A DNA stretch of 64,000 bases. It comes from an uncultured delta proteobacterium. Lineage in GTDB: Bacteria; Desulfobacterota; RBG-13-43-22. The notes below the pieces were generated by a model. That model was not told the origin of the DNA, did no database searches, and saw only the letters and a list, made by a program, of their open reading frames with translations. The stretch spans positions 1,056,001 to 1,120,000 of the forward strand of contig CAWBOS010000012.1 in NCBI GenBank assembly GCA_963790475.1. Reading direction: 5' to 3'. The translations under genes were made by a program, and so were the position numbers. Positions 12,541 through 30,314 of the stretch are shown here, in pieces (position 1 is the stretch's first letter; every line of letters starts with the position of its first letter).

Positions 12541-12571
12541 GATGCCCAGAGGAACCTTTCCTCTGGGCATC
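12541..12571 (+). terminator. Stem-loop terminator
   Basis: gatgcccagaggaa-cct-ttcctctgggcatc perfect hairpin just after the stop codon. Confidence 0.7.
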
Positions 12572-12789
12572 TTAAATTTAGCCCCCTTGAAAGACCGGGG
12601 AAGGTAACGTCCAAGATGATGGTCCCAACCCGACGCAATGCCCGGGGAAAGTTTCCCCGGGTATCTCCTATTTCCCAGGCTTCTTTCCCAGGGATTGCCT
12701 AATGATAGAGGGGAGGTCTCCCTTAACCACAGGAATTGCCCCGAGCAAAAAAGCCGGGTGTGGTTAAAGGTAAATTGGAGAAAAAAAGC

Positions 12790-13864: not shown

Positions 13865-15865
13865 ATGGATTCAACCCAATTGGCTCTCGATTTTTTCAAT
13901 TTTGATACGCCGTTTGCGCGTCTAAGAAAAACAGTGCCAATTGATACGACATTTCCTGAGGAGGAAGCCAATAGACTCGCTACCATAGAGTCCTTTAACA
14001 AACACCTTTTTAGGCCCAATACTTATTTGCACAAATGGTGGGCACGTCGGTCCGGTACCACATTTCGCCATATTTTAAAGCAACTCGTCCCGGATATCTC
14101 AAAAAGGGATTATTACAGCCCCGGCGGTTTGGAGGGGGTTACGATCCTCGACCCCATGATTGGCGGTGGAACCACTTTGCATGAAGCCATCCGCCTGGGT
14201 GCCAATGTAATCGGGTTTGACATTGACCCTATTCCAGTCCTGCAAGCCAGGGCCTCCCTCTCTGGCATCTCAATTTTTGAGAAACAGCAAATCTATCACG
14301 CTTTCGAAAGGGAATTGGCCAAGCGTATAGGCAAGTACTTCAAGACCTCCTGCCCAACCTGTGGCCGCAGTGTAGATCTGCAGTTCACGTTGTACGGTTT
14401 GAGAAAACGGTGCGACTCGGATGAGGTCTTGGTCGTGGATTCCTTGGTCCTCCGGGAGGAGTCTGATGGGAGTCAGAGAACTCTCGACGAGTTCTACCCC
14501 TATAGACAAATCCAGCTAAGGGGAAAAACTTGGAAGATATTAACCAAAGAGGAAGCCCGGGGAAAAGGGATTAACGGAAAAAGCTCAGAGATACTTTCCG
14601 TCCCTTTTACCGAACGCTATGTTCCTCTAATAATCGCCGGGCATTGCCCTGTTCATCAAAACTTTTATAAACCCATCGACAGCCAGGATATTAAGCTTCT
14701 TTTATCCGCCCAATGTTGGGTAACTAAGAATATTCATTTCCCAACCAACGACTTTGAGATACCAAACGGTCCCAAGTCAGATGACCTGAAAAACAGGAAT
14801 GTTCATTATTACTACGAACTCTTTTTCCCCCGTCAGTTGATCTATATTGCCAAGTCTCAGGCTATCCTGGCCACCATCCCCCAGAAGCACGCCCTTTGGA
14901 TGAGCTTATTATTATCTACTTCTTTGGAATTCAATGCCGCTCTCTGTGGTTATAAAGGAGTAGATAAAAGACGGCCTGGGGCCATCCGGCACGTTTTTTC
15001 TCATCATGCCTATTCCTTCCCCTATACGGCACTCGAAAACAATCCCCTGTTCTATCGCAATACATCGGGTACTCTCGGCAATCTTTTTGAGAGCCGGATT
15101 GTCGCCGCTGGGGAATGGGCCAAGGCTCCGATTGAACGGCGCTATATCAACCACCAATGGATAAAGACGACCATTCCAAACGAGATCGACCTGGGCCAGG
15201 AGTCATCTTCTCTTTCCGAATTTTCTGGTCAGAGCAAAATGTTTCTCGTTAGTCAAAACGATTCGACACAAATGCCGTTAGCTTCAAAATCCGTGGATTT
15301 TGTTGTGACCGATCCACCCTATTTTAACAGCGTTCAGTATAGTGATTTGTCCCATTTTTTCCGGTGCTGGCTCAGGACCTTTCTTCCGGACCAATCCAAT
15401 TGGCGTTATGTGAGCCAGTCTTCTGCCGTTGCCGAATCTGAAGAAAATGAAGCAAAGTTTGGCTTCGTCCTTGGACAAATATGGCAGGAATGTAATCGGG
15501 TTTTAAAACGTCCTCATGGCCGGCTTATCTTTACTTATCATCATTGGGACCCGAAGGCCTGGGCGCAACTTACGAACGCCCTGAAAAAGGCCCGCTTCCT
15601 CTTAACCAACGCCTTTGTTGTTCATTCTGAGAATCCAATCTCTGTTCATATCATGAATTTACGCGCCCTGAAACATGACACCATACTTGTCTTGAAACCC
15701 CGGGGGCCTCGAAAAAAGGATCAATGGCAAAAACCTGAGCCGATTGAAGACTTTGATAGCTACTCTTTTTGTAAGGCCTGTGGGAACATGATGGGCTGGA
15801 TTCTCGAACAGGACATGTCTGAACAAGATATTGCCAAAGCCTGGACGGATTTTCTGAAAGGTTAA
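13865..15865 (+). CDS. Amino-(m6A/m4C) DNA methyltransferase, DUF1156-like
   Basis: LHKWWARR N-terminal motif, motif I LDPMIGGGTT, motif IV VTDPPY, internal CPTC/CPVH Zn-finger-like insert. Confidence 0.85.
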   Translation: MDSTQLALDFFNFDTPFARLRKTVPIDTTFPEEEANRLATIESFNKHLFRPNTYLHKWWARRSGTTFRHILKQLVPDISKRDYYSPGGLEGVTILDPMIGGGTTLHEAIRLGANVIGFDIDPIPVLQARASLSGISIFEKQQIYHAFERELAKRIGKYFKTSCPTCGRSVDLQFTLYGLRKRCDSDEVLVVDSLVLREESDGSQRTLDEFYPYRQIQLRGKTWKILTKEEARGKGINGKSSEILSVPFTERYVPLIIAGHCPVHQNFYKPIDSQDIKLLLSAQCWVTKNIHFPTNDFEIPNGPKSDDLKNRNVHYYYELFFPRQLIYIAKSQAILATIPQKHALWMSLLLSTSLEFNAALCGYKGVDKRRPGAIRHVFSHHAYSFPYTALENNPLFYRNTSGTLGNLFESRIVAAGEWAKAPIERRYINHQWIKTTIPNEIDLGQESSSLSEFSGQSKMFLVSQNDSTQMPLASKSVDFVVTDPPYFNSVQYSDLSHFFRCWLRTFLPDQSNWRYVSQSSAVAESEENEAKFGFVLGQIWQECNRVLKRPHGRLIFTYHHWDPKAWAQLTNALKKARFLLTNAFVVHSENPISVHIMNLRALKHDTILVLKPRGPRKKDQWQKPEPIEDFDSYSFCKACGNMMGWILEQDMSEQDIAKAWTDFLKG

Positions 15866-15869
15866 ATTA

Positions 15870-16790
15870 ATGGCCAAATACCCTTCTGAGATATTCGGAT
15901 ATTATTGGAAAGATTCCTCTGTAGAGGCAAGATCGGCGAAGAAAAACCATCATTGCCCGTTTCATGATTCTGTGTGCTATAAAAAAAGCAGACTGGTTGA
16001 CTTCCCCTTCGGCGTATGCACCGCTCATACCGATGGCAAAGAAATTGCGCTATGCCCTCGCAGGTTTCTGGAGAAAGGCCTCATCTTTCGGGATATCGCC
16101 AAGGCCCACTTTGGCTCGATTCATAACATCCTGGTTTTTAGTGAGGTGGGTCTTACCGGGATTGGCAACTTCGACTTTGTGATGGTCAAACACAAGCCTC
16201 TGAGCACCGTGGTAGAAGATTTCGCAGTAATCGAACTTCAGACCGGACAAACCACCAGCACCGGCAAGCTTGTCCAGGGGTTTAAAGACTTCATGGACTC
16301 AGGGACCTTGGCCCCTAAGGCTACCTACAATTTCGGCATAAACACTTATGACATCTGGAAGAGGACATTCACCCAGATCCTCAACAAAGGCATAATCCTT
16401 GAGAAATGGAAAAGAAAGATTTTCTGGGTCGTCCAGGAACCGGTTTTTGAATATTTCCGGCATAAATATCGATTGGGATCAATCCAGTACGACGCCAATC
16501 ATTCATCCGTCTTCCTCCTCTACGATCTGAAGCTTACGGGGAATCGTCTGGTCCTTTCCCAAACCAACAAATACTCCTCAACCATAGATGCACTTTTTGA
16601 GGCTTTTAGGAAGAACGATGAAATTCCACCTGTGGAGAAGTTTGTCGAACGATTGCAGACTAAGGTAGATTCCGATCTCAAGCTGGGTCTCCGGTTGGAT
16701 AAAAAAATATCCCCCACTTATTTTGACGCCCCTAAGCCAACATCTTCCGGCAGGGTTAAAGATGATCAGGAAGATTATAGGGATGAATAG
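15870..16790 (+). CDS. NotI-family restriction endonuclease
   Basis: CPF...C.K...PFGVC...CPRRF Cys4 motif; FDFV...IELQT PD-(D/E)xK-like core; 4 bp downstream of the methyltransferase. Confidence 0.8.
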   Translation: MAKYPSEIFGYYWKDSSVEARSAKKNHHCPFHDSVCYKKSRLVDFPFGVCTAHTDGKEIALCPRRFLEKGLIFRDIAKAHFGSIHNILVFSEVGLTGIGNFDFVMVKHKPLSTVVEDFAVIELQTGQTTSTGKLVQGFKDFMDSGTLAPKATYNFGINTYDIWKRTFTQILNKGIILEKWKRKIFWVVQEPVFEYFRHKYRLGSIQYDANHSSVFLLYDLKLTGNRLVLSQTNKYSSTIDALFEAFRKNDEIPPVEKFVERLQTKVDSDLKLGLRLDKKISPTYFDAPKPTSSGRVKDDQEDYRDE

Positions 16791-17176
16791 AGGATAAGAC
16801 CGAACCCGCTGTTCCAAAATAAATGGGCGCCGTTGTCCATCTTTTGTATTCGGCGACCGTGGTGATTGGATTTCATAAGGGGGAGGACGATTGGGTTCGA
16901 CTGGGGAACTTACTTCAAAAGCAAGGAAATGTTAACTTCACAACTTGGGGAGCTCAAAGCTCATTGCTGAAAGCTCATAGGGGGAGTCTGGTCTATTTGG
17001 TCCATTGGTTCGTTTCGTATATATGGTCGATTAGTTTGATAGGTTTAAAAGAAGACCAAACAAAAAGACCAAGAATAATACTAAGTAAATAAAGGGGAAA
17101 AGGGGGGAAGTCAAGGGGAAAATAGGCCTTGCCCCCCTTCACTTTTAGATAAGGGCTTATTTTTCAAGAATAATTA

Positions 17177-17223
17177 ATGTATGTTATTATTTAGTTGACA
17201 TACATATATATTCATGGTAGGCT
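17177..17223 (+). promoter_or_regulatory. Sigma70-like promoter with overlapping inverted repeat inside the IS left end
   Basis: TTGACA 17195-17200, 17-bp spacer, TAGGCT 17218-17223; IR atgtatgtta-N9-tgacatacat. Confidence 0.55.
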
Positions 17224-17252
17224 CTGGCTCAATTGAACTCAGGAGGGTGCCC

Positions 17253-17582
17253 ATGGAAAATAAACTGCCCGAAGAATTCCTTTCCTTTTTTGAGTCCATA
17301 TTGTCAGCCCAACTTCGTGTAGTTCGCCAATTCAAGAATCCAAAATCCGGAAAGACTAAGCTCAACCAGGGGCAAGGTATGTCTAATATCTATATGGCCA
17401 TAGACATACTTCAAAAGGCCAAACAACCTCTTCATATCTCCGAAATCATTAATCAGGTTAAAGCCAAACACGGCGTAACGCTGGATCGTGAATCTTTGGT
17501 CAGCGCTTTGGTTAAAAAAGTCCACCAGAACCAGGGGTTGATACGTACGGCCCCCAACACCTTTCAGGTATCGAGTAAGTGA
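17253..17582 (+). CDS. Small winged-helix protein (HARE-HTH-like) inside the IS
   Basis: AGGAGG RBS; AIDILQKAKQPLHISEII...LIRTAPNTF wHTH pattern; GTGA overlap with the transposase start. Confidence 0.75.
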   Translation: MENKLPEEFLSFFESILSAQLRVVRQFKNPKSGKTKLNQGQGMSNIYMAIDILQKAKQPLHISEIINQVKAKHGVTLDRESLVSALVKKVHQNQGLIRTAPNTFQVSSK

Positions 17583-18778
17583 TCCATAAAGCCTCTAATC
17601 GGGAACGTATTGTCCACGATGAGTTGCTCCTGAAACTCTGTACCCTTCTATTGACCTATCAAGGGATTATTCGGATCTCTATTCTTAAAAATATTGCCTT
17701 GGTTACCTATGCGATCTTGACCCTTTTTAGCGGGGCACGAGGTTCTAATGGCTGGCTTTCCAAAGCCGCTTTAGCCCGATGCTTACCCTTAGACCTGGGC
17801 CCCAAAACCCGAGAGCAGCGACTCTACCGATTTTTAGCCAATCCGAGATTTACTCCGGAAGTCATGATCCCCCTGTTGGTGGCCTTGGCCAATGGAACCC
17901 ATCTCCCCGGACCGATCCCTCTCATCCTGGATCAGACCTCTATCCGGGGCATTCCCACCTTGCTGATCGGTTTGGTCTTTGAGGGGCGGGTGATACCCGT
18001 AGCTTTTTCTTGCTTCACTTATTCTCGTATTCAAAAAAGCCAAAACATCTTGGAACACGCCTTGATCTTAGCGGTTATGAGCTGTTTCCCGGCTAAGCAG
18101 CGCCCCTGGCTGATTATGGACCGGGGCTACGCTCGCATTGGTCTCTTAATGAAACTGGGCTTGGAGGGAATCCCTTTCCTGGTTCGAGCCCAAAAAAATG
18201 TCCTGGTTTACCGAAAAGGGGAACCTATCGCCCTCGGGCGGCTCTCGGTCAAACCCGGTCAGATCCAACGCTACTCGATCCGCTATCATTCTAAAGAAAA
18301 GGAACCGCTGGATCTAATCATCTTTTATGGGAAAGGCTATCAAGAACCTTGGTATCTCCTGGTTCCGGCCAATACGCCCGAGTCTGCGGAAGAAATCGTC
18401 GCCCTCTACGCCAAACGCATGTCTATTGAACAAGGCTTCCGGGATTGGAAAACCCACCTGGGTATCCGGGGCATGGTTTTTGTTCATGATAATCCCGCTC
18501 CGCGCCTTACTCGTTTACTCTTGGCCTTCTCTCTCAGTTATTTGCTTTGTCTGGCTTTGGGTAGTACCGCCGACAGCCAACTCGTAAGGGCTTTTGTGGA
18601 AATCCCCAGGCGAACGGCTCGGCATGGCACCACTCGAACACTCTCCGTCCTTTCTATTGGCATCTTAAAACTTTCCTTGCCTAAGTTCGCCTCCCAGGCC
18701 CGCTTACAAGTCTTAGCCGTTATTCAACAGCTTCTTTCTGGCCAAGGGTTGATCGCTGCCATCGTATCTCCCCCTTAA
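17579..18778 (+). CDS. IS4-family DDE transposase
   Basis: ILDQT, MDRGY and YAKRMSIEQGFRDWK (YREK signature). Confidence 0.9.
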   Translation: MIHKASNRERIVHDELLLKLCTLLLTYQGIIRISILKNIALVTYAILTLFSGARGSNGWLSKAALARCLPLDLGPKTREQRLYRFLANPRFTPEVMIPLLVALANGTHLPGPIPLILDQTSIRGIPTLLIGLVFEGRVIPVAFSCFTYSRIQKSQNILEHALILAVMSCFPAKQRPWLIMDRGYARIGLLMKLGLEGIPFLVRAQKNVLVYRKGEPIALGRLSVKPGQIQRYSIRYHSKEKEPLDLIIFYGKGYQEPWYLLVPANTPESAEEIVALYAKRMSIEQGFRDWKTHLGIRGMVFVHDNPAPRLTRLLLAFSLSYLLCLALGSTADSQLVRAFVEIPRRTARHGTTRTLSVLSIGILKLSLPKFASQARLQVLAVIQQLLSGQGLIAAIVSPP

Positions 18779-19311
18779 ACCTTTCCCCCTATGGTTACCC
18801 CGATTCATCTTCCTAATTTTCTTAAAACCTCAGGGGATAGCTTTTTCTCTCGGTCTGGTATTCTCCCTAATACAGGTTCTCATTCCCCCTCCCTCGTCTT
18901 CCCGTTCTTAATAAATTAACCGACTTCCCTTTAAATCCTCTCCTTTGGGCCTTCCTCCTTTCTTCTCGCTTTCGTCCTTTTCATCTTCCCACCTCTTCTC
19001 TCCCTTCCCCTTATCTAAAAGTGAAGGGGGGCAAGGAAAATAGGCGTGAGGCATGAGGCCAGAGGCGTGAGGGGTAATAAATCAGCTTAGAGTTCAAAAC
19101 TGAAAGCTCAAAGGAGGGGATAAAGGAAAAGGACGTTCTGCGTTCGGTGTTCGGCGATCAAACCAAAGTGAGCCAAAAAGCAGGAGGCAGGGTATACGTT
19201 TGGAGTTGGGGGTTCGGGGTTCGGAGACAAGAACACAGGAGGAAAAGGCGTGAACCACGAGGCAAATGAAGTTCGGAGTTGTGAGTTCGGGCCGATAGAA
19301 CCAAGGAAAGA

Positions 19312-19736
19312 TTACGTATTCTTCTTTACAAACTTTGTCCCGTCAATAACCTTGAGGCCTTTAATCTTTCCAAAATGAAAACTATTTCTGGTTATTAAGG
19401 GAACAGCCCGTGTAAGACATGGGCCGGCAACGAGAATATCTTTTATGTTAAGTGTCTTTCCAGTCTTGGAAAGGGTTACATGGATTTGGGCCGCCTTTTT
19501 TGAATCTTCCGGAGTCCAATCGAATGGGATCAACATGGCTAAAACATCCTCAACCGGTTTCAGTTTTCCGGAGTAGTATCCCCCATAATAAAGCTCGTAA
19601 ATTGAGACGGGGAGATATAGACCTCAAACTTTCCGATCAAAGTAGGAAGGATTTCCTGGTTTTCGTTTCTGCCGCGAAGATAATCAATGATAATATCGGT
19701 ATCTACGCAAACACGGGAGGTTTCCAATTTTTCCAT
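19312..19736 (-). CDS. vapC: PIN-domain toxin (VapC), 1-bp frameshift in the G run at 19609-19612
   Basis: MEKLETSRVCVDTDIIIDYLRG start, then VSIYELYYG...DILVAG...LITRN..HF in the adjacent frame. Confidence 0.8.
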
Positions 19737-19963
19737 TCCTTATTAAGTTTCTCATAGATGTCATCTACATCAACATCCTTCCAGGCACCCCTGGCTCTCG
19801 TAAAGCCATCCTTCCGGGACTTATTAATTTCAACGAAAAATTCATTCTTTACTAGATGGATCATTTTCATGATTTTTTCCATCTCAATTTCAGAAAGTCC
19901 TTGAATTTCTGCCGAGATTTTTTCTTTATAGACTTCCGTTACTTGCCGTCCGGGTATCCTCAT
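19703..19963 (-). CDS. Putative antitoxin for the VapC
   Basis: ATG 19963 after a GAGGGGGG RBS; ends ARGAWKD...EW; overlaps the vapC start; in frame with the upstream RHH gene. Confidence 0.6.
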   Translation of the reverse strand: MRIPGRQVTEVYKEKISAEIQGLSEIEMEKIMKMIHLVKNEFFVEINKSRKDGFTRARGAWKDVDVDDIYEKLNKEWKNWKPPVFA

Positions 19964-20224
19964 CCCCCCCTCACCAAAGGTGTCTGCCTTGATGTGATAT
20001 TCTCTATGGGCCTCCCCAAGATTGGGAATCCCGCTCGATACTGAGCCAATCAGACCTTTTACTTGGTCATAGGGCTTTGATTCATTCAGTACATCGATTT
20101 CAGAAATAAATTTTTCAAGAGCCAACCTGACGATATCGGAACGCTTACGCCGGAGTCTTTTGGCGACGTTAGCGATCTGTTCATGAAATTCTTCGTCAAG
20201 CCTGACTGTTATTTGTGATTGCAT
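19964..20224 (-). CDS. CopG/RHH antitoxin-like domain reading through in frame into the downstream antitoxin
   Basis: QITVRLDEE...KRSDIVRLALEKFI RHH fold; LIGSVSSGIPNLGEAHREY tail; no stop codon before 19703. Confidence 0.65.
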
Positions 20225-20252
20225 GATTTTTCTCCCCAAATCTTATTTTGGG

Positions 20253-20278
20253 TTGCATTGTAATGTATTGCAATGCAA
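20253..20278. promoter_or_regulatory. Candidate operator upstream of the RHH gene
   Basis: ttgcattgtaat-gt-attgcaatgcaa inverted repeat (11/12). Confidence 0.5.
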
Positions 20279-20438
20279 TTTTCAACAACAAAAGGGAAAA
20301 AGAAGTATAGTCATCTAAGCAATCAGATACCTTTTCAGAGGGAATAGAGGGGGGGATATCCACCTTAGCTCGCCACTATAATCCGTCCATTACCTACAAG
20401 TTCTCTGATGGGATATTCCATAATCAAATATTATTTTC

Positions 20439-20472
20439 TTGACCCAATATATCAATTTTGATATATTGGGTC
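20439..20472 (+). promoter_or_regulatory. higBA promoter with perfect 15-bp palindromic operator
   Basis: TTGACC-17bp-TATATT; gacccaatatatcaa-tt-ttgatatattgggtc. Confidence 0.75.
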
Positions 20473-20474
20473 TC

Positions 20475-20816
20475 ATGGCATGGGAGATTGAATTTTACAA
20501 AGATGAAAAAGGGAATGTCCCGGTAGAAGGTTTTATTGAGAATCCTCCGCCTAAGGAAAAAGCAAAAATAATTTGGATAATCGATCTGCTGGAAGGGACA
20601 GGAATTAATCTTTCGGAACCTTATGCAAAGCATATTGAAGGATCCCTATGGGAATTAAAACCTCAACAAAACAGAATTATATATTTTCTTAATAAAGAGA
20701 CTTTTGTTCTCTTGCATGGATTCAGGAAAAAAAGTCAAAAACTACCTATTCATGAAAGAGAGACTGCCCTTCGAAGGATGGAAGATTACCTGAAAAGGAG
20801 GAGGGAAAATGACTAA
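20475..20816 (+). CDS. higB: RelE/HigB-type (Gp49-like) toxin
   Basis: WEIEFY...PVEGFI...PYAKHIEGSLWELK...RIIYF...LLHGFRKKSQKLP; toxin-first gene order. Confidence 0.85.
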   Translation: MAWEIEFYKDEKGNVPVEGFIENPPPKEKAKIIWIIDLLEGTGINLSEPYAKHIEGSLWELKPQQNRIIYFLNKETFVLLHGFRKKSQKLPIHERETALRRMEDYLKRRREND

Positions 20817-21099
20817 GTGGCATTCGATTAGAGGAAAATTACTGGAAGATCCACAAATTCGGGAAGAATATCATAAGCTGCCTTCGGTTCATATTGCTGC
20901 CCAGATTATTAACGCCCGAAAGTCAAAAGGATTAACGCAGGCTGATTTGGCAGGTCTTGTCGGGACAAGCCAGTCGGCTATAGTCCGGCTTGAAAAAGGA
21001 AACTATTTAGGATACTCACTCAAAACCTTGCAGAAAATCGCTAAGGCTTTGGATGCAACGGTTGAGATTAATTTTTGTCCCAAGACCCAGATTTCCTGA
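20809..21099 (+). CDS. higA: XRE-family HTH antitoxin
   Basis: ARKSKGLTQADLAGLVGTSQSAIVRLEKG; overlaps the toxin stop. Confidence 0.85.
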   Translation: MTKWHSIRGKLLEDPQIREEYHKLPSVHIAAQIINARKSKGLTQADLAGLVGTSQSAIVRLEKGNYLGYSLKTLQKIAKALDATVEINFCPKTQIS

Positions 21100-21168
21100 A
21101 AAATTCAGAAGGTCAGGAGCAGATCTATTTCCTTTGCATTCTGGTTTTTGTCTCTTTTTATGCGTAGG

Positions 21169-22770
21169 TTAGGTCACCAAAAAATCGACTTTATTATTGT
21201 GGGTCCAGTACCAGATAAGGTGGTTATCCTCTTGTCTAATCTTGACATACCCGGCATCGATGAAACTTCTAATGGTTTGATGAATCAGGTTACTATCGAA
21301 ACCCGTGGCTTCTGCAATCCGTTGACAAAGCGGATCAAAGATTTTTTCAGGATTACCATTTGGGGTATCCGTAAGGAAAGAGCCGCAGGCCTCTAAAAGG
21401 TCTTCCGAGAGCATCTTATAAACCAGCTTCATCCGGAAATGACCGGCCACCCTTAAGTCTTCCTCCGGGGTGTTCGTTTTATCATGGTACCGCTGAACCT
21501 GTTTTTCCCAGGCCCGGTTGATCTCTTCATCAAATTCGGCCACGAATTGATCGATGGCTTCCGGCGTCAAGGCCGAGGTCCGGACAATGGCGCTGTTGGC
21601 ATCATAACGGGACCAGTCCTCGGTCAGGATTTCCAGATCATATTCATCGATTTTTTCCCGGACCGTAGTCCCGGGAAAGGGGGCCAGAAAATGAAACCCG
21701 TAGAGGATATCGAGACTCTTGGAGAACTCCGAGGTGTCTTTTAAAGTTTCGGGTGTCTCTCCCGGGAGCCCCACCATAAAGGAGGCGTGGGCCAGGATTC
21801 CCGCTTCCTTACAGAGGGCCACGGCCTTTCGGGCCTGATCGAGCGTGATCCCCTTTCTGATCCGCTTCAACATCTCCTGATTTCCGGATTCGATTCCGAA
21901 ACTGATGCAGTCACAACCGGTCTCCCGCATCAGACGCAACGTTTCCTGGTCCACGGTGTTGACCCGCGAAAAGGCCGTCCAGGTCAGGGAAAGTTTCCGC
22001 CGGCGGATTTCTTCACAGACCTCATGCACTTTTTCCCGGTCGGAGGTAAACAGGTCATCGGCGATATTGATCCTGGTAAACCCGTAAGACAGGATCTGTT
22101 CGATTTCATCCACTACCAGAGACGCCTTTCTGGAGCGGGCCTTGCTGCCCACCATTTTTCTCCCCTGACAAAAAATGCAGGAATAGGGACAGCCCCGACC
22201 GGTGATCATGGAAACCGGAAAACCGAGGGCCTGATAGCGGGACATGGGCAGCAGGTGCCGGGCCGGCAGAGGCAGGCTGTTCAAATCGTTGATCAGCTCC
22301 CTCTTCCCGGTTTGAATGATCCGTCCGTTTTCCCGGTAGGCGATCCCCGGGATGTCTCCTCGATTTCCCTGACCCCGGAAATGATCCATCAATTCCACTA
22401 TGGTTTTTTCCCCTTCGCCGATGACCAGCAGGTCGATTTCCGGGTAGGCTTCGAGGGTATTGATCACATCGAAGGATACATGAGGACCGCCCATCAGGGT
22501 GATGAGGGAGGGATCGATTTTCTTGGCCGTTCGGACGATATCGGCAGCGGCTGTAAAATTCATGGTCACCGATGTGGACCCCAATACCTGGGGCTGGAAC
22601 TCGGCCAGTTCCCGCTCCAGCTTTTCAGGGGTATAGCGGGAAATAATATAGTCGATGATTTTGACTTCCGCTCCGGCCTGTTCGAAGGCCGACGCCACAT
22701 ACGATATCCCCAGGGGGGGTGAAGGGGCCTCTTCCAGAGGATAGGGGGGTGCAATAATGGCTACTCTCAC
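21169..22770 (-). CDS. Cobalamin-binding radical SAM enzyme
   Basis: PPLGISYVA and MGGPH B12-binding domain; GRGCPYSCIFC; likely GTG start at 22770. Confidence 0.9.
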   Translation of the reverse strand: MRVAIIAPPYPLEEAPSPPLGISYVASAFEQAGAEVKIIDYIISRYTPEKLERELAEFQPQVLGSTSVTMNFTAAADIVRTAKKIDPSLITLMGGPHVSFDVINTLEAYPEIDLLVIGEGEKTIVELMDHFRGQGNRGDIPGIAYRENGRIIQTGKRELINDLNSLPLPARHLLPMSRYQALGFPVSMITGRGCPYSCIFCQGRKMVGSKARSRKASLVVDEIEQILSYGFTRINIADDLFTSDREKVHEVCEEIRRRKLSLTWTAFSRVNTVDQETLRLMRETGCDCISFGIESGNQEMLKRIRKGITLDQARKAVALCKEAGILAHASFMVGLPGETPETLKDTSEFSKSLDILYGFHFLAPFPGTTVREKIDEYDLEILTEDWSRYDANSAIVRTSALTPEAIDQFVAEFDEEINRAWEKQVQRYHDKTNTPEEDLRVAGHFRMKLVYKMLSEDLLEACGSFLTDTPNGNPEKIFDPLCQRIAEATGFDSNLIHQTIRSFIDAGYVKIRQEDNHLIWYWTHNNKVDFLVT

Positions 22771-22775
22771 GGAGG

Positions 22776-23498
22776 TCAATCCCCTTTCAGCGGGAATACC
22801 AGGGACCTGAGCCATCCCAAAAGGGTATTGCCTTTGAGGTTATTTTTTTCATTTTCTTTCACTTCGGCGGTAAGCTGGGCGATGATTGAAAACCAGTCTT
22901 CCCGGGTCTGCATCGGTTTATCCGTATCCAATTGCTTCAGGACCACGGCCGGATTACCGCCGGCCACTACATTGGGCGGGATATCCTTGACGACCACCGC
23001 GCCGGCCCCGACAATACTGTTATCCCCGATGGTCACCCCTTTGCAGACAATGGTGCTGTCTCCCAGCCAGACATTGTTTCCGATCCTGACCGGGGATGAC
23101 TGCCCGACAAACATGCTCCGATCATAGAGGTCATGCCAATCGGCATCGGTGACATAGACGCGATTGGCCAGCATGCAATTGTCCCCGATGCTTATCTCTG
23201 TGGCGGCGCTGATGCGCACCCCGGCGCATATCAAACAGTACTTTCCTATTTGGATGTGTCCTTCTCCCTCCCGGTTGGACCAGACGGTTAACCGAACCTT
23301 GTTGTCCGAGGTGGCTATAATATTGGCATAGTCCCCCAGTGAAATAGGACCGCCGTTCACTTCCACACACCAGGGCTTCATGATGGTGGTGTTCTGCCCC
23401 AGGTCCTCAAACTGAGGGCGCAGGAAATGATGGACATACCATACTTCAAACCGGTGGCTGAGACGTTTGACGCTATAGGGACGATGATCTCTTTTCAA
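22776..23498 (-). CDS. Left-handed beta-helix (hexapeptide) acyltransferase
   Basis: IGDNCML, IGNNVWLG and VTIGDNSIVGAGAVVVKDIPPNVVAGGNPA motifs. Confidence 0.9.
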   Translation of the reverse strand: MKRDHRPYSVKRLSHRFEVWYVHHFLRPQFEDLGQNTTIMKPWCVEVNGGPISLGDYANIIATSDNKVRLTVWSNREGEGHIQIGKYCLICAGVRISAATEISIGDNCMLANRVYVTDADWHDLYDRSMFVGQSSPVRIGNNVWLGDSTIVCKGVTIGDNSIVGAGAVVVKDIPPNVVAGGNPAVVLKQLDTDKPMQTREDWFSIIAQLTAEVKENEKNNLKGNTLLGWLRSLVFPLKGD

Positions 23499-23533
23499 TT
23501 TATAACAGCCTTGTTTCCTGATGAAGTAATTAT

Positions 23534-23703
23534 TGATGGACTCGTAAAAATTCGCTCAAAACCGAGTCACGTCATTCCGGCCCCGCATCAAGTGCGGGAT
23601 AGACTCCAGCCGGAATCCATCCCGCCTTTGGCGGGACCGGTTTTCACCCCCGGATAAATACATTCCGGGGCAGGCTTGGTGACGACTTTTTACAAATCCA
23701 TCA
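23534..23703. repeat. Composite REP/MITE-like element inside the operon
   Basis: Outer IR tgatggactcgtaaaaa / tttttacaaatccatca enclosing gtcattccgg...ccggaatcca and nested hairpins. Confidence 0.7.
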
Positions 23704-23719
23704 TTGTTGAATTGGGTGA

Positions 23720-24814
23720 CTATTCCGACTGGTTTTTCTCGCGGGCCAGGGGAAGATTATTCGTGGTAACCGATTTTCCCTCTCTCAATGTTTCCCAGAA
23801 ACCGTGATTGAATATTCGACTGGCCGGTGTCATCTCATTCAAGGCGTCATAGGCGAGAAGCACGGCTGCGGCTGTCCAGGACGTTTTCTCCTCGGGCCAG
23901 ATGACCGTATCGGGAAAGGTAACGCCCATCCAATAGCATCCATCATCGAATTTCTTATCTCGTAACCAGTTGAAAACCGTTTCCGCTCGATCAAAATCAC
24001 CGACAGCCGCCAGGGTCAAGACTAATTCGGCCGTTTCGGCCATGGTCACCCAGGGGTGGTCGGAAACACAGCGAACGCCCCAATCCGGAACGGTAAATTT
24101 ATCCCAGAATTTATCAATCCTCCTTTTGGCTTCCAGGCCTGTGACCGCACCGCAAAGGACGGGATAATACCAATCCATCGAATAACGGGATTTGATCATA
24201 TTGAAACAGTCCGGTTTATTGCGGATGGCCTCCCCCAGCTTATCCAGGGCTTTTTCCCAGGACGGACGGCGTTTGCCCAAGAAGGAGGCGATGGCCAGGG
24301 CGCACTTGAGGCTCATAAAAATGGAACTGGAGCCGGTCAACAAAGCCATCGGATCGACCACCCCTTTCCCGTTTTTCGCCCAGTAAATCTCACCGGTGGG
24401 GGCCTGTAAACTGACGGCATAATTAATGCCGGCTTTTAGGGCCGGCCACATGTGCTCGAGAAAGGCTTTATCCCCGGTAATCAAATAATAATGAAAAACT
24501 CCGACGGCGATATAGGAGGACATGTTGGTTTCCCGGGTGGTATCCTCGGGGGTCCCGTTGCGTGTGGCTGACCACCAGCTCCCGTCTTTGAGTTGGGTCT
24601 TTGTCATCCAATCAAAAGCCAGGGCCGCCTCCTTCAAATAGCCGGACACACTGAGGCCCATGGCACTTTCCACGTGATCCCAGGGATCGGTTTTGCCCCC
24701 CTGGGACCAGGGAATTTCACCATCCGGTTTTTGTAAGTTCAGGATGAATTCCGCAGTAGAAGCGATATCAACGACCGGAAACCGGACTTTACGTGAAATG
24801 AGGGCTTCGGACAT
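23720..24814 (-). CDS. (alpha/alpha)6-barrel protein, usually annotated prenyltransferase/squalene-oxidase repeat (possibly glycosidase-like)
   Basis: LQKPDGEIPW and QLKDGSWW QW-like repeats; DPWDHVESAM, YSMDWYYPVL and PWVTMAETAE motifs. Confidence 0.75.
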   Translation of the reverse strand: MSEALISRKVRFPVVDIASTAEFILNLQKPDGEIPWSQGGKTDPWDHVESAMGLSVSGYLKEAALAFDWMTKTQLKDGSWWSATRNGTPEDTTRETNMSSYIAVGVFHYYLITGDKAFLEHMWPALKAGINYAVSLQAPTGEIYWAKNGKGVVDPMALLTGSSSIFMSLKCALAIASFLGKRRPSWEKALDKLGEAIRNKPDCFNMIKSRYSMDWYYPVLCGAVTGLEAKRRIDKFWDKFTVPDWGVRCVSDHPWVTMAETAELVLTLAAVGDFDRAETVFNWLRDKKFDDGCYWMGVTFPDTVIWPEEKTSWTAAAVLLAYDALNEMTPASRIFNHGFWETLREGKSVTTNNLPLAREKNQSE

Positions 24815-25526
24815 GTTCTTCCTTTCTTGAATAGAATACGATGCTTTTTCCTAAAAAGGGATTCAACAGATAATCCAGTAAACGGGTCAGCCGGGGTTTC
24901 TTCATCATGTCCCAGACCAGGAACCGATGGTACAGGTTGACCAGCGCGGAATCCTGGCGGTTGGGACCGATCATACATTTCAACCACCAGTAGGGGGTAT
25001 GGAGGCTGTGGGCGAAATGGGAGGCCCAGACTCGGGAGCCCGAACCTTCCATCAGGGTGATCAGTTCCTTTTTCTTATAAATGCGGATATGCCCGTTGGC
25101 GTTCTGGTGATAACTTTCGGACAAAGCCCAGCAGATACGTTCCGGCAAATACCTGGGAACGCTGACGACCAAGTCCCCCCCGGGCCTTAACACCCTGGTC
25201 ACTTCCTTTATGGCGGTGTGCTGGTCCGGGATATGTTCCAGCACTTCCGAACAAATTACCATGTCGAAAAAATTGTCGGGAAAAGGCAGGCCGGTGATAT
25301 CGGCTACCAGGGTGGCCCAAATCCCTCCTCCGTGCTCCCCCAATTCTTCCTGATTGAGAAGCCGGTTTCTGGCTTCCTTCACTTCATCAAAGTTGAAATC
25401 AGAACCGATGACCACCACTTTTTCGAGTCTCAAGGCCGCGCAGCTATGGCGACCGGATCCACAGCCGATATCCAGTATTTTATGACCCGTACCTATCGGT
25501 AGACGGTTAAAGTCAACGGTAATCAT
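24789..25526 (-). CDS. Class I SAM-dependent methyltransferase
   Basis: ILDIGCGSGRH, LPFPDNFFD and SEVLEHIP motifs; overlaps both neighbours. Confidence 0.9.
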   Translation of the reverse strand: MITVDFNRLPIGTGHKILDIGCGSGRHSCAALRLEKVVVIGSDFNFDEVKEARNRLLNQEELGEHGGGIWATLVADITGLPFPDNFFDMVICSEVLEHIPDQHTAIKEVTRVLRPGGDLVVSVPRYLPERICWALSESYHQNANGHIRIYKKKELITLMEGSGSRVWASHFAHSLHTPYWWLKCMIGPNRQDSALVNLYHRFLVWDMMKKPRLTRLLDYLLNPFLGKSIVFYSRKEEHVRSPHFT

Positions 25527-26763
25527 GGATGGTTTCCCGGTAAGCTTCCACCGTGGCCTGGGCCGCCTTTTTCCAGGTGAAGAATTGGTGAACCCGTTTA
25601 AAGCCGGCCTCGCCCAGGGCTTTTGCTTTCTCCGGATTATCGAGCAGCGCCTTTATGGCTTCGGCCAGGGCCCGGGAATCGGCTGAGGGTATGACCAGGC
25701 CGGCGTCTCCCACTACTTCCGGGAGGGCCCCGCCCGAGGTACTGATGACCGGTACCCCGCAGGCCATGGCCTCCCCCGCGGGAAGGCCGAAACCCTCGTA
25801 CAGCGAGGGGATCACCGCCAGGGACGCCCGGGCGTAACAGCGGACGAAACTTCCGTTGTCAATCCTGCCGGTGAAGGTAACCTGTCGCCCAAGGTCTAAT
25901 TCGCGGATGAGCTTGATGATCCGGCTGTCCTTTTTAGGTTCGCCCACCACCGTGAGTCTCACGGGGTGGGTTTTGGTAACTTCTTTCACCGCCTTTAATA
26001 AATAGTCCAGACCCTTTAAAGGCATATCAGCGCTGTTGGTGGCAATAAGATGATTTTTTTCCCTCTCTATTTCGGGGAGCGGATAAAAAAGGTCGGTGTT
26101 GATACCGTTGGGAACCACTTTGAATCTATGGCGGGGGATGTTGAATTCCCGGCTGATGTCATCCCCGGCACATTCGGAAACGGTGATGATTTTGGGAAGT
26201 TTTCGCGAGACCTTTATCTGCATCCCGATAAAGGAATACCACCTGACCTGTTTCAGCTTCTTCCAGGGAGAACGGGCGGCGGCAATGTCCAATTTGCGGT
26301 CTACGGTGATGGGATGATGGATGGTGGCAATGGTCGGGACTTCTTTCTGCATATTCAGAAGGCCGTAGAAAAGGCTCTGGTTGTCGTGAATAATGTCGTA
26401 CCGGTCATACTTGTCTTTCAGGAACTTTTGAGCCCGGAGACCGAAGGTATAGGGTTCGGGAAATCCCGCGGTGGAGACCCCGATCCATTCCAGCAGATTA
26501 ATGGGATCGCACAGTTCTCTTAAGGAAGGAAGCCTGAACAGGGCTTCAGGGTTATACAGATCAAGGGATGGGAGACGATAGACCTTGATATCCTCATCGA
26601 GGAGCGGGTCGGGCGGTCCGGATATCACCTCGACCTGATGGCCCAGGTCCTTGAGTGCCCTGCTCAAGTTTTTCAGATAGACCCCCTGTCCGCCGCAGTG
26701 CGGATTGCTCCGGTAACTTAACAGACATATTCTGAGAGGACCATTCTTCTTTTCGGGTTCCAT
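25513..26763 (-). CDS. Glycosyltransferase family 4 (GT-B, MshA-like)
   Basis: PHCGGQGVY and PSLYEGFGLPAGEAMACG motifs. Confidence 0.9.
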   Translation of the reverse strand: MEPEKKNGPLRICLLSYRSNPHCGGQGVYLKNLSRALKDLGHQVEVISGPPDPLLDEDIKVYRLPSLDLYNPEALFRLPSLRELCDPINLLEWIGVSTAGFPEPYTFGLRAQKFLKDKYDRYDIIHDNQSLFYGLLNMQKEVPTIATIHHPITVDRKLDIAAARSPWKKLKQVRWYSFIGMQIKVSRKLPKIITVSECAGDDISREFNIPRHRFKVVPNGINTDLFYPLPEIEREKNHLIATNSADMPLKGLDYLLKAVKEVTKTHPVRLTVVGEPKKDSRIIKLIRELDLGRQVTFTGRIDNGSFVRCYARASLAVIPSLYEGFGLPAGEAMACGVPVISTSGGALPEVVGDAGLVIPSADSRALAEAIKALLDNPEKAKALGEAGFKRVHQFFTWKKAAQATVEAYRETIHDYR

Positions 26764-27035
26764 AGACCTGGTCTTTGAAAGGATTAAGGATGGTTTGATT
26801 TATTTCCGAGCGCTCGTTCACTTTTTTTGAATTTCTACCATATTTAGGGTCGGGAAGTCAAGTCAAAAACCAATCAAAGATATTTGGGATTTCCCCGTTG
26901 CGAGTTAGGAGTTTCTGGAGAAAAGATTATACTTCTTAAATCGCAACCCGTAACCCGTAACCCGCAACAGGGTTTGCATTTGAGAAGAGTTCTCAGATCT
27001 ATTGTTAAAAGAAGCGATGTGCCGGGTTTGGGCCA

Positions 27036-28814
27036 TCATTCCTTCTTCAATTTCGGCCGTTCCAGCCCTTTAACGATCTGGGAACGGATCATCCGCGGCA
27101 GAATCATGTGATGATGGGGGCAGATGGATTTGGGATTCTGATAGGCGCTGCCGGTGAAGGCCACCAGGTAACGCCGAAGTTCCTCATAGCGGACCACTTC
27201 ATCGACGAAGCCTCTTTTGGCGCAGTAGACAGGCCGGGATTGTTCGTAATATTGTCGGGCCAGGGCATTCATTTTGTCAATCACCGGCTGCAACGGTTTG
27301 CCGCTGTCCTTTTCTTTGACCAGCCTTCGGGAAAAAGAGGCCACGGAAGCCGTCTCTCCATGCATGACATAGATCTCGGTCGTCGGGGTGCCCAAGGTAA
27401 AGGCATTATGGTTGTTGGCCGTCGGGCCGCCCATGATGTAATGGGCGGCGGCCGTGCCTTTTCTCAAAACCACCAGCATCATGGGCACGTCGGTCTGCTC
27501 GATGGAATAGATCAGGGATTGGCCCAGACCCAGCAGTTCGGCCTTCTCGGCCGTATCCCCCACATCGATCCCCGAAGTGTCCTGGAACCAGACGACCGGC
27601 ACCCGGTCCCGTCCGCATTGGGTGACGAATTCGTTCATCTTGATCAGACCCTGCCGATACAGTTTGCCGCCGATACCGATATATTCATTGGTATATTCCG
27701 GGTAATTCGCCCCGAGAAAACCCTGTCGGTTTCCAATGATTCCCACTAAAAACCCGTCTACCTTGACCAGACCGGTATAGACCTCCGGTCCAAAGCCGGG
27801 ACGAAACTCCAAGTGTTCGCTCCCGTCCACCAGACGGGCCAGGAAATTATCAAAGTCATAAACCGCTTTTTGGTTAAAGGCAATGATGGAGGGCAGATCC
27901 GAAAGGGGATATTTGGGCTCGGCCGGCTTGGCCACCCGGAAAAACCGGGGATGATAGGCCGGTATTTCGGACATATATTCCTTTAAGGCATCCAGGACCT
28001 GGGTTTCTTCATCAAACACGGCCCGGAAAAATCCGGTGGAATCGTAATGGATTTTGACACTGCCGGGAGGGACCTGTTTGAAGTGCCGGGTGGCCTCGAT
28101 AATCTGCTCGGCCCCCTCTTCATCAAAAGTCCCTTTGGGACTCATGCCGCTGACGATACCGCCTCCGCCGACAGCGATATTGCAATTTTTGTGGGCCAGC
28201 AGGATAGTGGGGCTGATCCCCTGATACCCGCCGCCGGCCGGGTTGGTCCCATATATCCCGGCCAGGACCGGGATGCCCAGTTTTTCCAGTTCGGCATGAC
28301 GGAAGAAGGTAGTGCCGTTTCCCCGGCGATCGGCATAAACCTCCTGTTGTTCGGTGAGTTTGACCCCGGAACAATTGACCAGCCAGACCAGGGGGATATG
28401 AAGGCGTTTGGACAGATCCGTTACCCGCAACTGGTTTTCCGCCTGCCCGGCTATCCAGGCCCCGGCCATGACCTTGTTATCAAAACCGATCAGGACGCAC
28501 CAGCGGCCGCTGATGCAGGCCAGACCGTCAATAACCCCGGTGGTCCCTTCTTCGTTATCTTTCGGATTATACAGGGTGTGAAGGGGGCAGAAGGTTCCCG
28601 GATCGACCAGATATTCAATCCGGTCCCAAACGGTCATCTCTTTTCGCTCGTGGATTTTTTCAGCCGGCAGTCCGGCCTTCTTGACCCGTTCGATCTCCGC
28701 TTCCACTTCTTTCACTACCGCCTCAATCTGTGCCCGGTTTTCAGTCATTTTCTCGATCTGAGCCGGTTTGACGGGTTTGCCTAAATCGTCCATCTTTTCA
28801 AAATACGGTCGCAT
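27036..28814 (-). CDS. gcdA: Glutaconyl-CoA decarboxylase alpha (carboxyltransferase) subunit
   Basis: Carboxyltransferase fold with VNCSGVKL, GTNPAGGGY, GKLYRQGL, QDTSGIDVG, GTAAAHY and CPHHHMILPR motifs typical of GcdA. Confidence 0.85.
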   Translation of the reverse strand: MRPYFEKMDDLGKPVKPAQIEKMTENRAQIEAVVKEVEAEIERVKKAGLPAEKIHERKEMTVWDRIEYLVDPGTFCPLHTLYNPKDNEEGTTGVIDGLACISGRWCVLIGFDNKVMAGAWIAGQAENQLRVTDLSKRLHIPLVWLVNCSGVKLTEQQEVYADRRGNGTTFFRHAELEKLGIPVLAGIYGTNPAGGGYQGISPTILLAHKNCNIAVGGGGIVSGMSPKGTFDEEGAEQIIEATRHFKQVPPGSVKIHYDSTGFFRAVFDEETQVLDALKEYMSEIPAYHPRFFRVAKPAEPKYPLSDLPSIIAFNQKAVYDFDNFLARLVDGSEHLEFRPGFGPEVYTGLVKVDGFLVGIIGNRQGFLGANYPEYTNEYIGIGGKLYRQGLIKMNEFVTQCGRDRVPVVWFQDTSGIDVGDTAEKAELLGLGQSLIYSIEQTDVPMMLVVLRKGTAAAHYIMGGPTANNHNAFTLGTPTTEIYVMHGETASVASFSRRLVKEKDSGKPLQPVIDKMNALARQYYEQSRPVYCAKRGFVDEVVRYEELRRYLVAFTGSAYQNPKSICPHHHMILPRMIRSQIVKGLERPKLKKE

Positions 28815-28953
28815 ATTTTTTCCTCCTTTATTATTCGGTCAAAGAAGTTCAGGGTTTCCGGTTTCGTAGCTATTGGGCTATTTCAAATTGAACACCATTT
28901 CTTAGACAGGATTTTCAGATATCTTTTTTGTAAGTCTTATGCCTTGCCGAGTT

Positions 28954-30108
28954 TTATTCCATGATGATATTTTTTGAAACGATCATACGCTGGATCTGGT
29001 TGCTTCCGTCAAAGATCTGGATCGCCTTGGCATCACGCATCATCCGCTCCACTGGCGATCCCTTTAAATACCCGGCTCCTCCGAAAATCTGGACGGCATC
29101 AATGGTCACCCGCATGGCCATGTCTGAGGCATAGCATTTACACATGGAAACCAATGTTTCAATGTCGCGGAAGGTGCCCTCCCGGTTATCAATCATCGAA
29201 GCCGTTCTGAAAATCAAAGATTTAGCGGCTTCAATGGCCATCTTCATGTCGGCCAGCATAAAACCTATGGCCTGAAAGGAGGCGATCAGCCGTTTGAACT
29301 GGGACCGTTTTTTTGCAAAAGACAGGGCCGCTTCATAAGCCCCTTCGGCAATACCCAGAGACATGGAAGCCGCGCCCCAGACCCGCATGATATTGGCATG
29401 ATGGGATAAGATCGTCCACCCTTCGCCCGGCTGAAGGAGCAGATTTTCCTTGGGGACCCGGGCATTCTGAAAAATCATCTCCGAAGTCACCGATCCCCCC
29501 AATCCCATTTTCCTTTCTTTTTTCCCGAAGGACAACCCGGGGGTTTCCCTGGGGACGATCAGGGCACTGATGCCCGCCGTTCGTTTTCCAGGTCCGGTTC
29601 GGACAAAGACCAGGTAATAATGGGCATGAGGTCCTAAAGTAATAAATGTTTTTGTTCCATTGACCAGGTAGTCGTTCCCCTCCAGGACCGCCCTGGTTTG
29701 TAGAGAGCCGGCATCGGAACCATGATTCGGTTCTGTCAGACAAAATCCGCACAGTTTGTCACCCTGGACCATATCGGGAAAAAAAAGTTCCTGTTGATCC
29801 CTGGTTCCTACCTCTCGGATGATCCTAATGACCGCCTGGGTAGGAAAAACCAATAAGGCTGAAGCCGGAGAGGCCTTCGAGATTTCTTCAATGGCCAGGC
29901 ACAGTGTTGTGGCATCCGCTTCCTGCCCATTATACCTGATCGGCAGGGAAAGTCTTAATAAACCGGCCTTGATAAAGGCTTCATAACTGGTCTGGGGAAA
30001 TTCATCCCGGGCATCAATCTCCACCGCATGGGGCACAATCTCAGAGGCCACCAGGGCCTGCACCTTTTTCTGAATCTCCTTTTGAGCGGGATTGAGATGG
30101 AGGAACAT
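28954..30108 (-). CDS. Acyl-CoA dehydrogenase
   Basis: FCLTEPNHGSD, QIFGGAGY and IFDGSNQIQR motifs. Confidence 0.9.
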   Translation of the reverse strand: MFLHLNPAQKEIQKKVQALVASEIVPHAVEIDARDEFPQTSYEAFIKAGLLRLSLPIRYNGQEADATTLCLAIEEISKASPASALLVFPTQAVIRIIREVGTRDQQELFFPDMVQGDKLCGFCLTEPNHGSDAGSLQTRAVLEGNDYLVNGTKTFITLGPHAHYYLVFVRTGPGKRTAGISALIVPRETPGLSFGKKERKMGLGGSVTSEMIFQNARVPKENLLLQPGEGWTILSHHANIMRVWGAASMSLGIAEGAYEAALSFAKKRSQFKRLIASFQAIGFMLADMKMAIEAAKSLIFRTASMIDNREGTFRDIETLVSMCKCYASDMAMRVTIDAVQIFGGAGYLKGSPVERMMRDAKAIQIFDGSNQIQRMIVSKNIIME

Positions 30109-30314
30109 CAGTTTGCGGCCTGCCTTTCTTTTCGCTTTAGAAATTCCGGATGATAGCGGTCTGAACAAAACAAATGGGACGGGACAACTATCATAAATAT
30201 TCGGCCTGTTTGTCAATATCTTTTTGCCCGCTTCTTTTTATTTGACTTGGCTGCGATTCATTTTCTATGATGGAGGGAAATGGAAATAAGGAGTATTGGA
30301 GTAATGGTGGGGGG

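Follow-up and report, generated by a model that had tools for sequence, protein, structure and literature searches.

What does a bacterium make with a cluster of five genes that joins a glycosyltransferase, a methyltransferase, an alpha-helical barrel protein, an acyltransferase and a B12-binding radical S-adenosylmethionine (SAM) enzyme? The cluster is located at positions 21169-26763 of a 64,000-nucleotide stretch of DNA from an uncultured delta proteobacterium (assembly GCA_963790475.1, contig CAWBOS010000012.1, positions 1,056,001 to 1,120,000; the window), and it sits on a contig of 1.6 Mb. The list of open reading frames (ORFs) of the window showed that five co-oriented minus-strand ORFs fill the whole interval. 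The first two genes, for the GT4 glycosyltransferase and the methyltransferase, overlap by 14 nt (25513-25526), and the methyltransferase and barrel genes overlap by 26 nt (24789-24814). The initial annotation of this DNA had described the same five gene types, with the first three overlapping, and both the ORFs and the Pfam matches agree with that description. The data suggest that the cluster probably encodes a pathway like that of the mycobacterial 3-O-methylmannose polysaccharide (MMP), to which an acetylation and a radical SAM tailoring step have been added. What supports this reading is sequence homology, the retention of catalytic residues and of gene order, and joint occurrence across genomes; from them we infer the donor sugar, the linkage, the sites of methylation and acetylation, the reaction of the radical SAM enzyme and the role of the product in the cell.

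The first three genes were recognized by their similarity to proteins of solved structure. In a PDB sequence search the third protein (364 aa; 23720-24814, minus strand) matched entry 7qsj with an E-value of 1.6e-104 over residues 19-336, and the GT4 protein (416 aa; 25513-26763, minus strand; Pfam Glycos_transf_1 and Glyco_transf_4) matched entry 7qsg with an E-value of 8.5e-100 over residues 7-412. Entry 7QSJ is MmpH and entry 7QSG is ManT of M. hassiacum, an alpha-(1->4)-mannosyltransferase, and both proteins are described in the relevant sections of the structural study as parts of the MMP pathway (PMC9883506). The order of the M. hassiacum genes, as given by their locus tags, is ManT, pMeT3, MmpH and MeT1 (PMC9883506, section 18), and the order of ManT, methyltransferase and MmpH homologues in the window matches it. 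In Pfam the third protein had no significant family, with only a weak match to MGH1-like_GH; the (alpha/alpha)6 fold, which the initial annotation had already proposed, is assigned to it because of the strong homology to the solved MmpH structure (PMC9883506, section 11). Hence, as judged from sequence comparison, ManT, pMeT3 and MmpH, the core of the MMP pathway, are what this trio represents. The earlier description of the trio as uncharacterized does not hold in view of the 7qsj, 7qsg and actinobacterial matches, and three of the five genes of the cluster thus belong to a characterized pathway, an outcome that the initial annotation had named as one that would speak against its proposal.

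The residues on which MmpH activity depends are retained in the barrel protein. An alignment to 7qsj showed that its DPWDHVE motif contains the equivalents of MmpH D47, W49 and D50, whose replacement by alanine drastically reduced MmpH activity (PMC9883506, section 11). In this alignment D43, W45, D46 and E260 of the window protein correspond to MmpH D47, W49, D50 and E262, the last being the base, and E263, W313, Y217 and T160 correspond to E265, W315, Y219 and T163. The eight positions are kept in 78-79 of 79 sequences (D43 in 78, D46 in 78 and E260 in 79) in an alignment consisting of the window protein, the proteins of 77 related loci and that of Nonomuraea. The suggestion that DPWDHVE is a glycosidase-type acidic site was therefore borne out, and the reading of the barrel as a terpene cyclase or prenyltransferase is ruled out by the 7qsj homology together with the conserved acid residues. 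The relatives of the barrel protein, which form at least 5853 protein clusters at an E-value of 1e-20 or better among 8000 candidates scored, carry in public records the names "hypothetical protein" or "phenyltransferase domain-containing protein". In the GT4 protein the equivalents of ManT G15, H142, K240, E313-G314-F315 and E321 are invariant in all 56 homologues. The second protein (245 aa; 24789-25526, minus strand) is a class I SAM methyltransferase (Pfam Methyltransf_11, E 6.5e-23), with sugar O-methyltransferases among its nearest solved structures in the PDB search. Its gene is flanked by those for ManT and MmpH, a slot that a methyltransferase gene also takes in actinobacteria, and it is 46% identical to the Nonomuraea gene in that slot; its assignment as pMeT3-like is based on this position and on the Nonomuraea comparison.

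The actinomycete Nonomuraea gerenzanensis (locus L081) carries the trio in identical order, with identities of 47, 46 and 43% for ManT, the methyltransferase and MmpH, respectively, and the trio is followed there by a DUF1702 gene and then by a methyltransferase that matches PDB 6G7D with an E-value of 7.9e-77. We take 6G7D to be the structure of MeT1. A gene for a MeT1 homologue, with 6G7D as its sole PDB match (E 3.3e-58), is present in the source genome outside the window, at C12:943210-943830 and 134 kb from the cluster. Directly upstream of it lies a gene for a second B12-binding radical SAM protein of 528 aa (rSAM2), which is 42% identical over its full length to the radical SAM protein of the cluster (rSAM1), so that the segment C12:941526-943830 (L082:5527-7834) reads TetR, rSAM2 and MeT1 homologue. 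In two genomes of the same genus this string runs directly into ManT, and in one relative TetR, rSAM2, MeT1, ManT and pMeT3 are contiguous. Among the 21 genomes of the class to which the source organism belongs, MeT1 and MmpH homologues were found in 10 genomes each, all of one genus; of the 20 relatives in this class, 8 have both, 1 has MeT1 only and 1 has MmpH only, and the MeT1-only genome contains a truncated MmpH at a contig end. rSAM2 adjoins MeT1 in 6 of the 11 MeT1 loci, and a TetR gene is adjacent instead in the other 5. A gene upstream of the Nonomuraea cluster encodes a GDP-mannose 4,6-dehydratase, and the 11.85-Mb record of this genome (NZ_LT559118.1), filed as "plasmid I", is evidently a chromosome.

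The remaining two genes of the cluster encode the acyltransferase of the left-handed beta-helix (LbH) type (240 aa; 22776-23498, minus strand, TTG start; Pfam Hexapep, E 1.3e-14) and rSAM1 (533 aa; 21169-22770, minus strand). The longest ORF of rSAM1 (21169-22815, 548 aa) would overlap the LbH gene by 40 nt; the GTG at 22770 is taken as its start because the paralogue and 28 homologues align from that residue, and this leaves the distance of 5 bp between the two genes that had been noted before. That both belong to the same system as the trio was indicated by their conservation in other genomes. For the barrel protein at least 588 relatives exist, and the loci of the best 80 were used, a sample biased towards nearest relatives. 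Judged by record title, they come from metagenome-assembled genomes that carry the label Thermodesulfobacteriota or "delta proteobacterium", most of them from Syntrophales and Desulfobacterales, while a few bear the label of another phylum; loci labelled Syntrophus aciditrophicus, Smithella, Desulfonema limicola and Desulfococcus are among them. When only loci with enough flanking sequence were counted as informative, LbH directly followed MmpH in 70 of 72, the radical SAM gene followed LbH in 50 of 64, the methyltransferase preceded MmpH in 59 of 71, and ManT preceded the methyltransferase in 51 of 63. All five genes stood in this order in 38 of the 49 loci with room for them, so that the acyltransferase and radical SAM genes do co-occur with the trio, and MmpH and LbH alone were found in 7 of these 49. 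In the Desulfobacterales-labelled type with MmpH and LbH only, all five genomes checked have ManT and pMeT3 elsewhere, with MeT1 convergent beside that pair in three.

The same association was observed in an even sample of 401 genomes from the phylum, in which related genomes are not independent, so that no statistic is given and the pattern is read across many families. MmpH was present in 50 of these genomes, the LbH orthologue in 45, of which 43 also have MmpH, and an rSAM1 orthologue (at least 53% identity) in 38, of which 36 have MmpH. In 30 of the 36 genomes with both, MmpH and rSAM1 share a strand, and rSAM1 follows at a distance of 750-1211 bp, which would accommodate the LbH gene. Both exceptions for rSAM1 are at contig breaks, one with a cut MmpH and the other with ManT at the contig edge and MeT1 beside rSAM1; of the two genomes with LbH but without MmpH, one is again the case of the cut MmpH and the other has a completeness of 66%. 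Four other genomes have no LbH, and in them an rSAM2-type gene flanks the MMP cluster, in the order rSAM2-ManT-pMeT3-MmpH with convergent MeT1, or in the same arrangement with rSAM2 after MeT1. A position of rSAM2 within or next to MMP genes was recorded in four other families that lack LbH. In Syntrophales-type loci MeT1 is convergent and within 1.5 kb after rSAM1 in 24 of 43 informative cases. A chance neighbourhood of the LbH and radical SAM genes is ruled out by the recurring order, strand and co-occurrence in dozens of species, and the comparative data indicate that the five genes are one conserved unit to which LbH and the radical SAM gene belong. A gene for a PHP-domain protein (phosphoesterase) immediately precedes ManT in 23 of 48 informative loci (for example L009:5254-6003 and L010:5348-5998), and its homologue in the source genome, which is 55% identical, is located 250 kb away at C12:830698-831336; this gene may be a further member of the pathway, acting for example in primer dephosphorylation.

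The LbH protein resembles enzymes that acetylate sugars. Its nearest solved structures are maltose and galactoside O-acetyltransferases (E about 5e-23 to 2e-21), such as PDB 3hjj, 1ocx and 1kqa, with which it shares the hexapeptide-repeat core and a histidine of the catalytic region. This histidine belongs to a D120-W121-H122 motif that is invariant in all 70 orthologues, and at this position it presumably has a catalytic role. Unlike those enzymes, the protein has about 80 additional N-terminal and about 45 additional C-terminal residues and makes up a separate orthologue group, whose members are almost confined to the neighbourhood of MmpH; because it stays below all NCBIfam equivalog cut-offs, it is regarded as a separate subfamily. 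A naturally acetylated MMP (AMMP) was reportedly described in Streptomyces griseus by Harris and Gray in 1977. This polymer is cited in two papers (PMC9883506; PMC4555173), and it is an MMP-type polysaccharide with acetyl groups, as the LbH gene would predict here. The acetyltransferase gene of S. griseus is not named where these papers mention the polymer, and a related LbH enzyme might act there. No homologue of LbH or of the radical SAM protein was found within 9 kb of the Nonomuraea MMP cluster, which was the one actinomycete locus inspected.

The class of rSAM1 is well defined by its domains. Pfam detected a B12-binding domain (E 9.1e-24) and a Radical_SAM domain (E 6.8e-27), and the cysteines of the CxxxCxxC motif (C194, C198 and C201) are invariant in 29 sequences. 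The AlphaFold model was confident (pLDDT 91.0, pTM 0.90) and in Foldseek was about equally similar to OxsB, TsrM, AprD4, CysS, MgmA/QCMT and TokK, with E-values of 6.5e-24 to 3.7e-21 and TM scores of 0.58-0.67 on the query. With these proteins rSAM1 shares the N-terminal Rossmann domain of the B12 type and the CxxxCxxC radical SAM barrel; it differs from them in that identity is only 18-22%, no curated family is matched, and a 130-residue C-terminal domain is present that, within this set, only rSAM1 and rSAM2 have in common. Hence, the predicted fold would fix the class of the enzyme but not its reaction. Known reactions of B12 radical SAM enzymes include ring contraction, nucleophilic methylation and radical methylation, and most characterized members are described as methyltransferases in the consulted part of a study of the class (PMC12931638). 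A quick tree, with support given as the Shimodaira-Hasegawa-like approximate likelihood ratio test (SH-aLRT), placed the rSAM2 clade (7 rows, SH-aLRT 99) apart from the rSAM1 clade (29 rows, SH-aLRT 93), and three paralogues of about 40% identity from genomes without MMP genes fell outside both; their neighbours are M16 or TldD/PmbA peptidase genes, or unrelated genes. Selenocysteine had been considered for those rSAM1 orthologues whose matches contained one TGA codon, and this was dropped, as in the one such locus inspected (L019) the stops lie at the match ends, where there are boundaries of neighbouring genes.

Together, these observations are best read as pointing to a cytoplasmic, O-methylated and O-acetylated MMP-like polymer that is further modified by rSAM1, with its chemistry inferred. 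The operon would both make and recycle this polymethylated polysaccharide. By analogy to the mycobacterial model outlined in the corresponding section of the MmpH study (PMC9883506, section 16), ManT would use GDP-mannose to lengthen alpha-(1->4)-oligomannoside primers, the pMeT3-like enzyme would O-methylate the added mannoses with SAM, at O-3 in that model, the MeT1 homologue would methylate the reducing-end 1-OH, and MmpH would cut mature chains internally to provide primers for new ones. Two lineage-specific steps could be added, in which LbH would O-acetylate sugar hydroxyls from acetyl-coenzyme A (acetyl-CoA), with a product similar to the acetylated MMP of S. griseus, and rSAM1 would act on the polymer at an unactivated carbon, with C-methylation as the likeliest reaction. 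As the specific reaction of rSAM1, C-methylation is put forward only tentatively. rSAM2, beside MeT1, would probably perform a related reaction. The predicted product is a more hydrophobic helical polymer that could bind long acyl chains, and its suggested physiological role is an extrapolation from mycobacteria. No hydrophobic segment was found in any of the five proteins, in keeping with a cytoplasmic location of the pathway. The source genome also has a gene of the GDP-mannose pyrophosphorylase type (310 bits on the N-terminal part of TIGR01479) and a CobQ gene (522 bits, above the cut-off). A B12 supply is better argued from this CobQ gene than from the gene at 45889-47211 of the window, which had been named bzaF; the latter exceeds the cut-offs of ThiC models (562 versus 410 and 512 versus 460 bits) and stays below that of the BzaB model (498 versus 700 bits), so that it scores as ThiC.

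Several observations weigh against the proposed pathway, and some of them favor a different polymer. The source genome is a bin with an estimated contamination of 9.68%, although the contig of the cluster is 1.6 Mb long, the structured repeat between MmpH and LbH may affect their co-transcription, and the MeT1 homologue, which adjoins other MMP genes in relatives, is unlinked to the cluster in this genome. Moreover, pMeT3 itself is described as merely putative even in mycobacteria (PMC9883506, section 16). The product could be another methylated and acetylated oligo- or polysaccharide, with a different donor, linkage or chain length, rather than an alpha-(1->4)-linked 3-O-methylmannan. The identity to the actinobacterial enzymes is moderate (43-47%), many relatives have M, V, I or L in place of MmpH F102, and a PHP phosphoesterase is often added upstream of ManT. 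In addition, the equivalent of ManT D293, a residue proposed to read the guanine in PimA and ManT, is N303 here and varies among relatives between N, Y, H, D and others; because this position is not conserved, the donor and the linkage could differ. On the other hand, all four MMP genes co-occur and cluster, and the subsite residues of MmpH and the E-G-F of the ManT mannosyl loop are invariant, so that a product of a different kind appears unlikely. The proposal that the cluster makes a methylated, acylated glycoconjugate thus stands insofar as a methylated and probably acylated glycan is expected, and the glycolipid, compatible solute or mycothiol-like cofactor that had been considered are less likely than an MMP-like cytoplasmic polysaccharide. 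That the locus instead degrades or scavenges foreign methylmannose polymers could be suggested by the hydrolase among its genes, but it is highly improbable given that a glycosyltransferase, methyltransferases and an acetyltransferase are also encoded and that the proteins, besides having no hydrophobic segments, are accompanied by no transporter or secretion signal.

rSAM1 is not placed in any named functional family, with models for BchE, HpnJ, PhpK, BzaD and HpnR among those compared, and it reaches no NCBIfam cut-off, the best being BchE with 225 versus 481 bits. Its nearest solved relatives perform five different reactions, and among them is AprD4, which according to the part of the study that deals with it binds no cobalamin (PMC12931638). 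An enzyme that acts on the glycan otherwise than as a methylase, either as a diol dehydratase in a deoxygenation such as that of AprD4, or in a ring contraction or cyclization such as those of OxsB, HpnJ or BchE, could be envisaged from the fact that the solved structure closest in sequence is that of AprD4 (E 1.1e-26), an enzyme whose substrate is a sugar diol, that OxsB is the top Foldseek match, and that BchE and HpnJ give the best NCBIfam scores. These scores are, however, far below the family cut-offs and nearly tied with those of methylases, the N-terminal domain scores strongly as B12-binding, unlike that of AprD4, and methyltransferases prevail among the characterized members of the class, which makes such chemistry a rather improbable choice. 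A further explanation is that the enzyme modifies a protein or peptide, for instance an enzyme of the pathway, or makes a small cofactor, and is merely co-regulated with the cluster. The solved relative that is second-nearest in sequence, 9ccb, methylates a protein glutamine (PMC12931638), and in genomes without MMP genes paralogues of about 40% identity lie beside peptidase genes, among three M16 peptidase genes or beside TldD/PmbA (L104:4614-10477 and L105:7903-12289), which hints at peptide-modifying relatives of rSAM1. The C-terminal 130 residues could be taken in the same sense, as in the secondary structure of the model they are helices ending in a winged-helix-like unit; yet this domain alone had no significant Pfam match (best E 0.27 and 0.14). 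A conserved small ORF was not observed next to the radical SAM genes, and two separate clades of such enzymes are embedded in MMP clusters of many families, so that a protein or cofactor substrate seems quite unlikely, and modification of the polysaccharide itself is preferred.

Compared with the mycobacterial MMP cluster of M. hassiacum and M. smegmatis (PMC9883506), all four genes of which have homologues in the source genome, the locus shares the order of ManT, methyltransferase and MmpH, the catalytic residues of MmpH and ManT, and soluble, cytoplasmic-looking proteins. It differs in its host, which is an anaerobic lineage of Thermodesulfobacteriota and not an actinobacterium, in the position of MeT1, which is unlinked here and convergent after the cluster in many relatives, and in the addition of a dedicated LbH O-acetyltransferase, one or two B12 radical SAM enzymes and, in relatives, often a PHP protein. 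The polymer described here is predicted from genes. The published survey of MMP genes, in the section that describes it, searched actinobacterial genomes only (PMC9883506, section 18), and in the literature consulted polymethylated polysaccharides are regarded as particular to Actinobacteria and are linked to the lipid metabolism of mycobacteria. In a literature search no relevant paper came up that connects methylmannose with radical SAM enzymes or with desulfo- or syntroph- bacteria, with one supplementary PDF of PMC9883506 being unsearchable. What would be new is that anaerobic Thermodesulfobacteriota have an MMP pathway, and that it comes with an acetyltransferase of its own and with two B12 radical SAM clades.

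MMP-type genes are found in about one in eight of the sampled genomes (MmpH in 50/401) of this strictly anaerobic phylum, and many of the carriers are labelled as syntrophic degraders. Such organisms live on acyl-CoA chemistry. If the proposed pathway is correct, thousands of genes would receive a better annotation, acetylated MMP would gain a candidate acetyltransferase, two orphan clades of B12 radical SAM enzymes would have a concrete and testable substrate, and it would become possible to test whether these polymers buffer acyl-CoA pools outside mycobacteria. To our knowledge, a polysaccharide, as presumed here, would be a new substrate for the B12 radical SAM class. In its most far-reaching form, the idea would be that two cobalamin radical SAM clades add C-methyl groups to an acetylated 3-O-methylmannan in anaerobic Thermodesulfobacteriota, forming a new class of polymethylated polysaccharide. 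O-methyl or acetyl carbons could for example be extended iteratively, in the way that CysS and TokK act on small molecules, and this would tune a cytoplasmic polymer that binds acyl chains and buffers acyl-CoA pools in syntrophic degraders of fatty acids and aromatic compounds; we consider the idea doubtful as a whole. Were it borne out, radical SAM tailoring of such a polysaccharide would be described for the first time, as would a polymer of this type outside Actinobacteria.

The 221-bp spacer between MmpH and LbH (23499-23719, no strand) contains a dispersed, strongly palindromic repeat with a core at about 23530-23705. The repeat has 58 further blastn matches across contigs of the same genome, which is in agreement with the repeat element that had been seen to separate the first three genes from the last two, and it folds as a long hairpin of -95.5 kcal/mol (z -7.1). 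It resembles palindromes of the miniature inverted-repeat transposable element (MITE) or repetitive extragenic palindrome (REP) type, inserted in the operon. On the minus strand of this spacer a scan found neither a terminator-like nor a promoter-like site; in related loci the corresponding spacer is mostly about 50-160 bp long. A promoter-like site is present 5' of the ManT start (26837-26866, minus strand; TTGACT-18-TATGGT, 9/12 matches), for which the evidence, a consensus match only, is weak.

Upstream of ManT, positions 27036-30216 hold genes for a carboxyltransferase resembling the alpha subunit of glutaconyl- or methylmalonyl-CoA decarboxylase and for an acyl-CoA dehydrogenase. Apart from L001 and L002, the two nearest loci, they are not found next to the cluster, and for this reason they are placed outside the conserved unit. 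Immediately downstream of the cluster, the region 12000-21100 has a lower G+C content (0.44-0.47 versus about 0.52) and contains a DUF1156-type gene (13865-15865), an IS4 transposase (17579-18778), a ribbon-helix-helix protein (19703-20239) and a Gp49/helix-turn-helix pair resembling HigB/HigA (20439-21099). This region probably represents a mobile or defence insertion, at the place where MeT1 sits in many relatives. A further transposase, of the IS1634 family, is encoded at 47754-49595 (332 bits versus a cut-off of 100), and the window as a whole abounds in genes for acyl-CoA ligases, thiolases, CoA-transferases and dehydrogenases.

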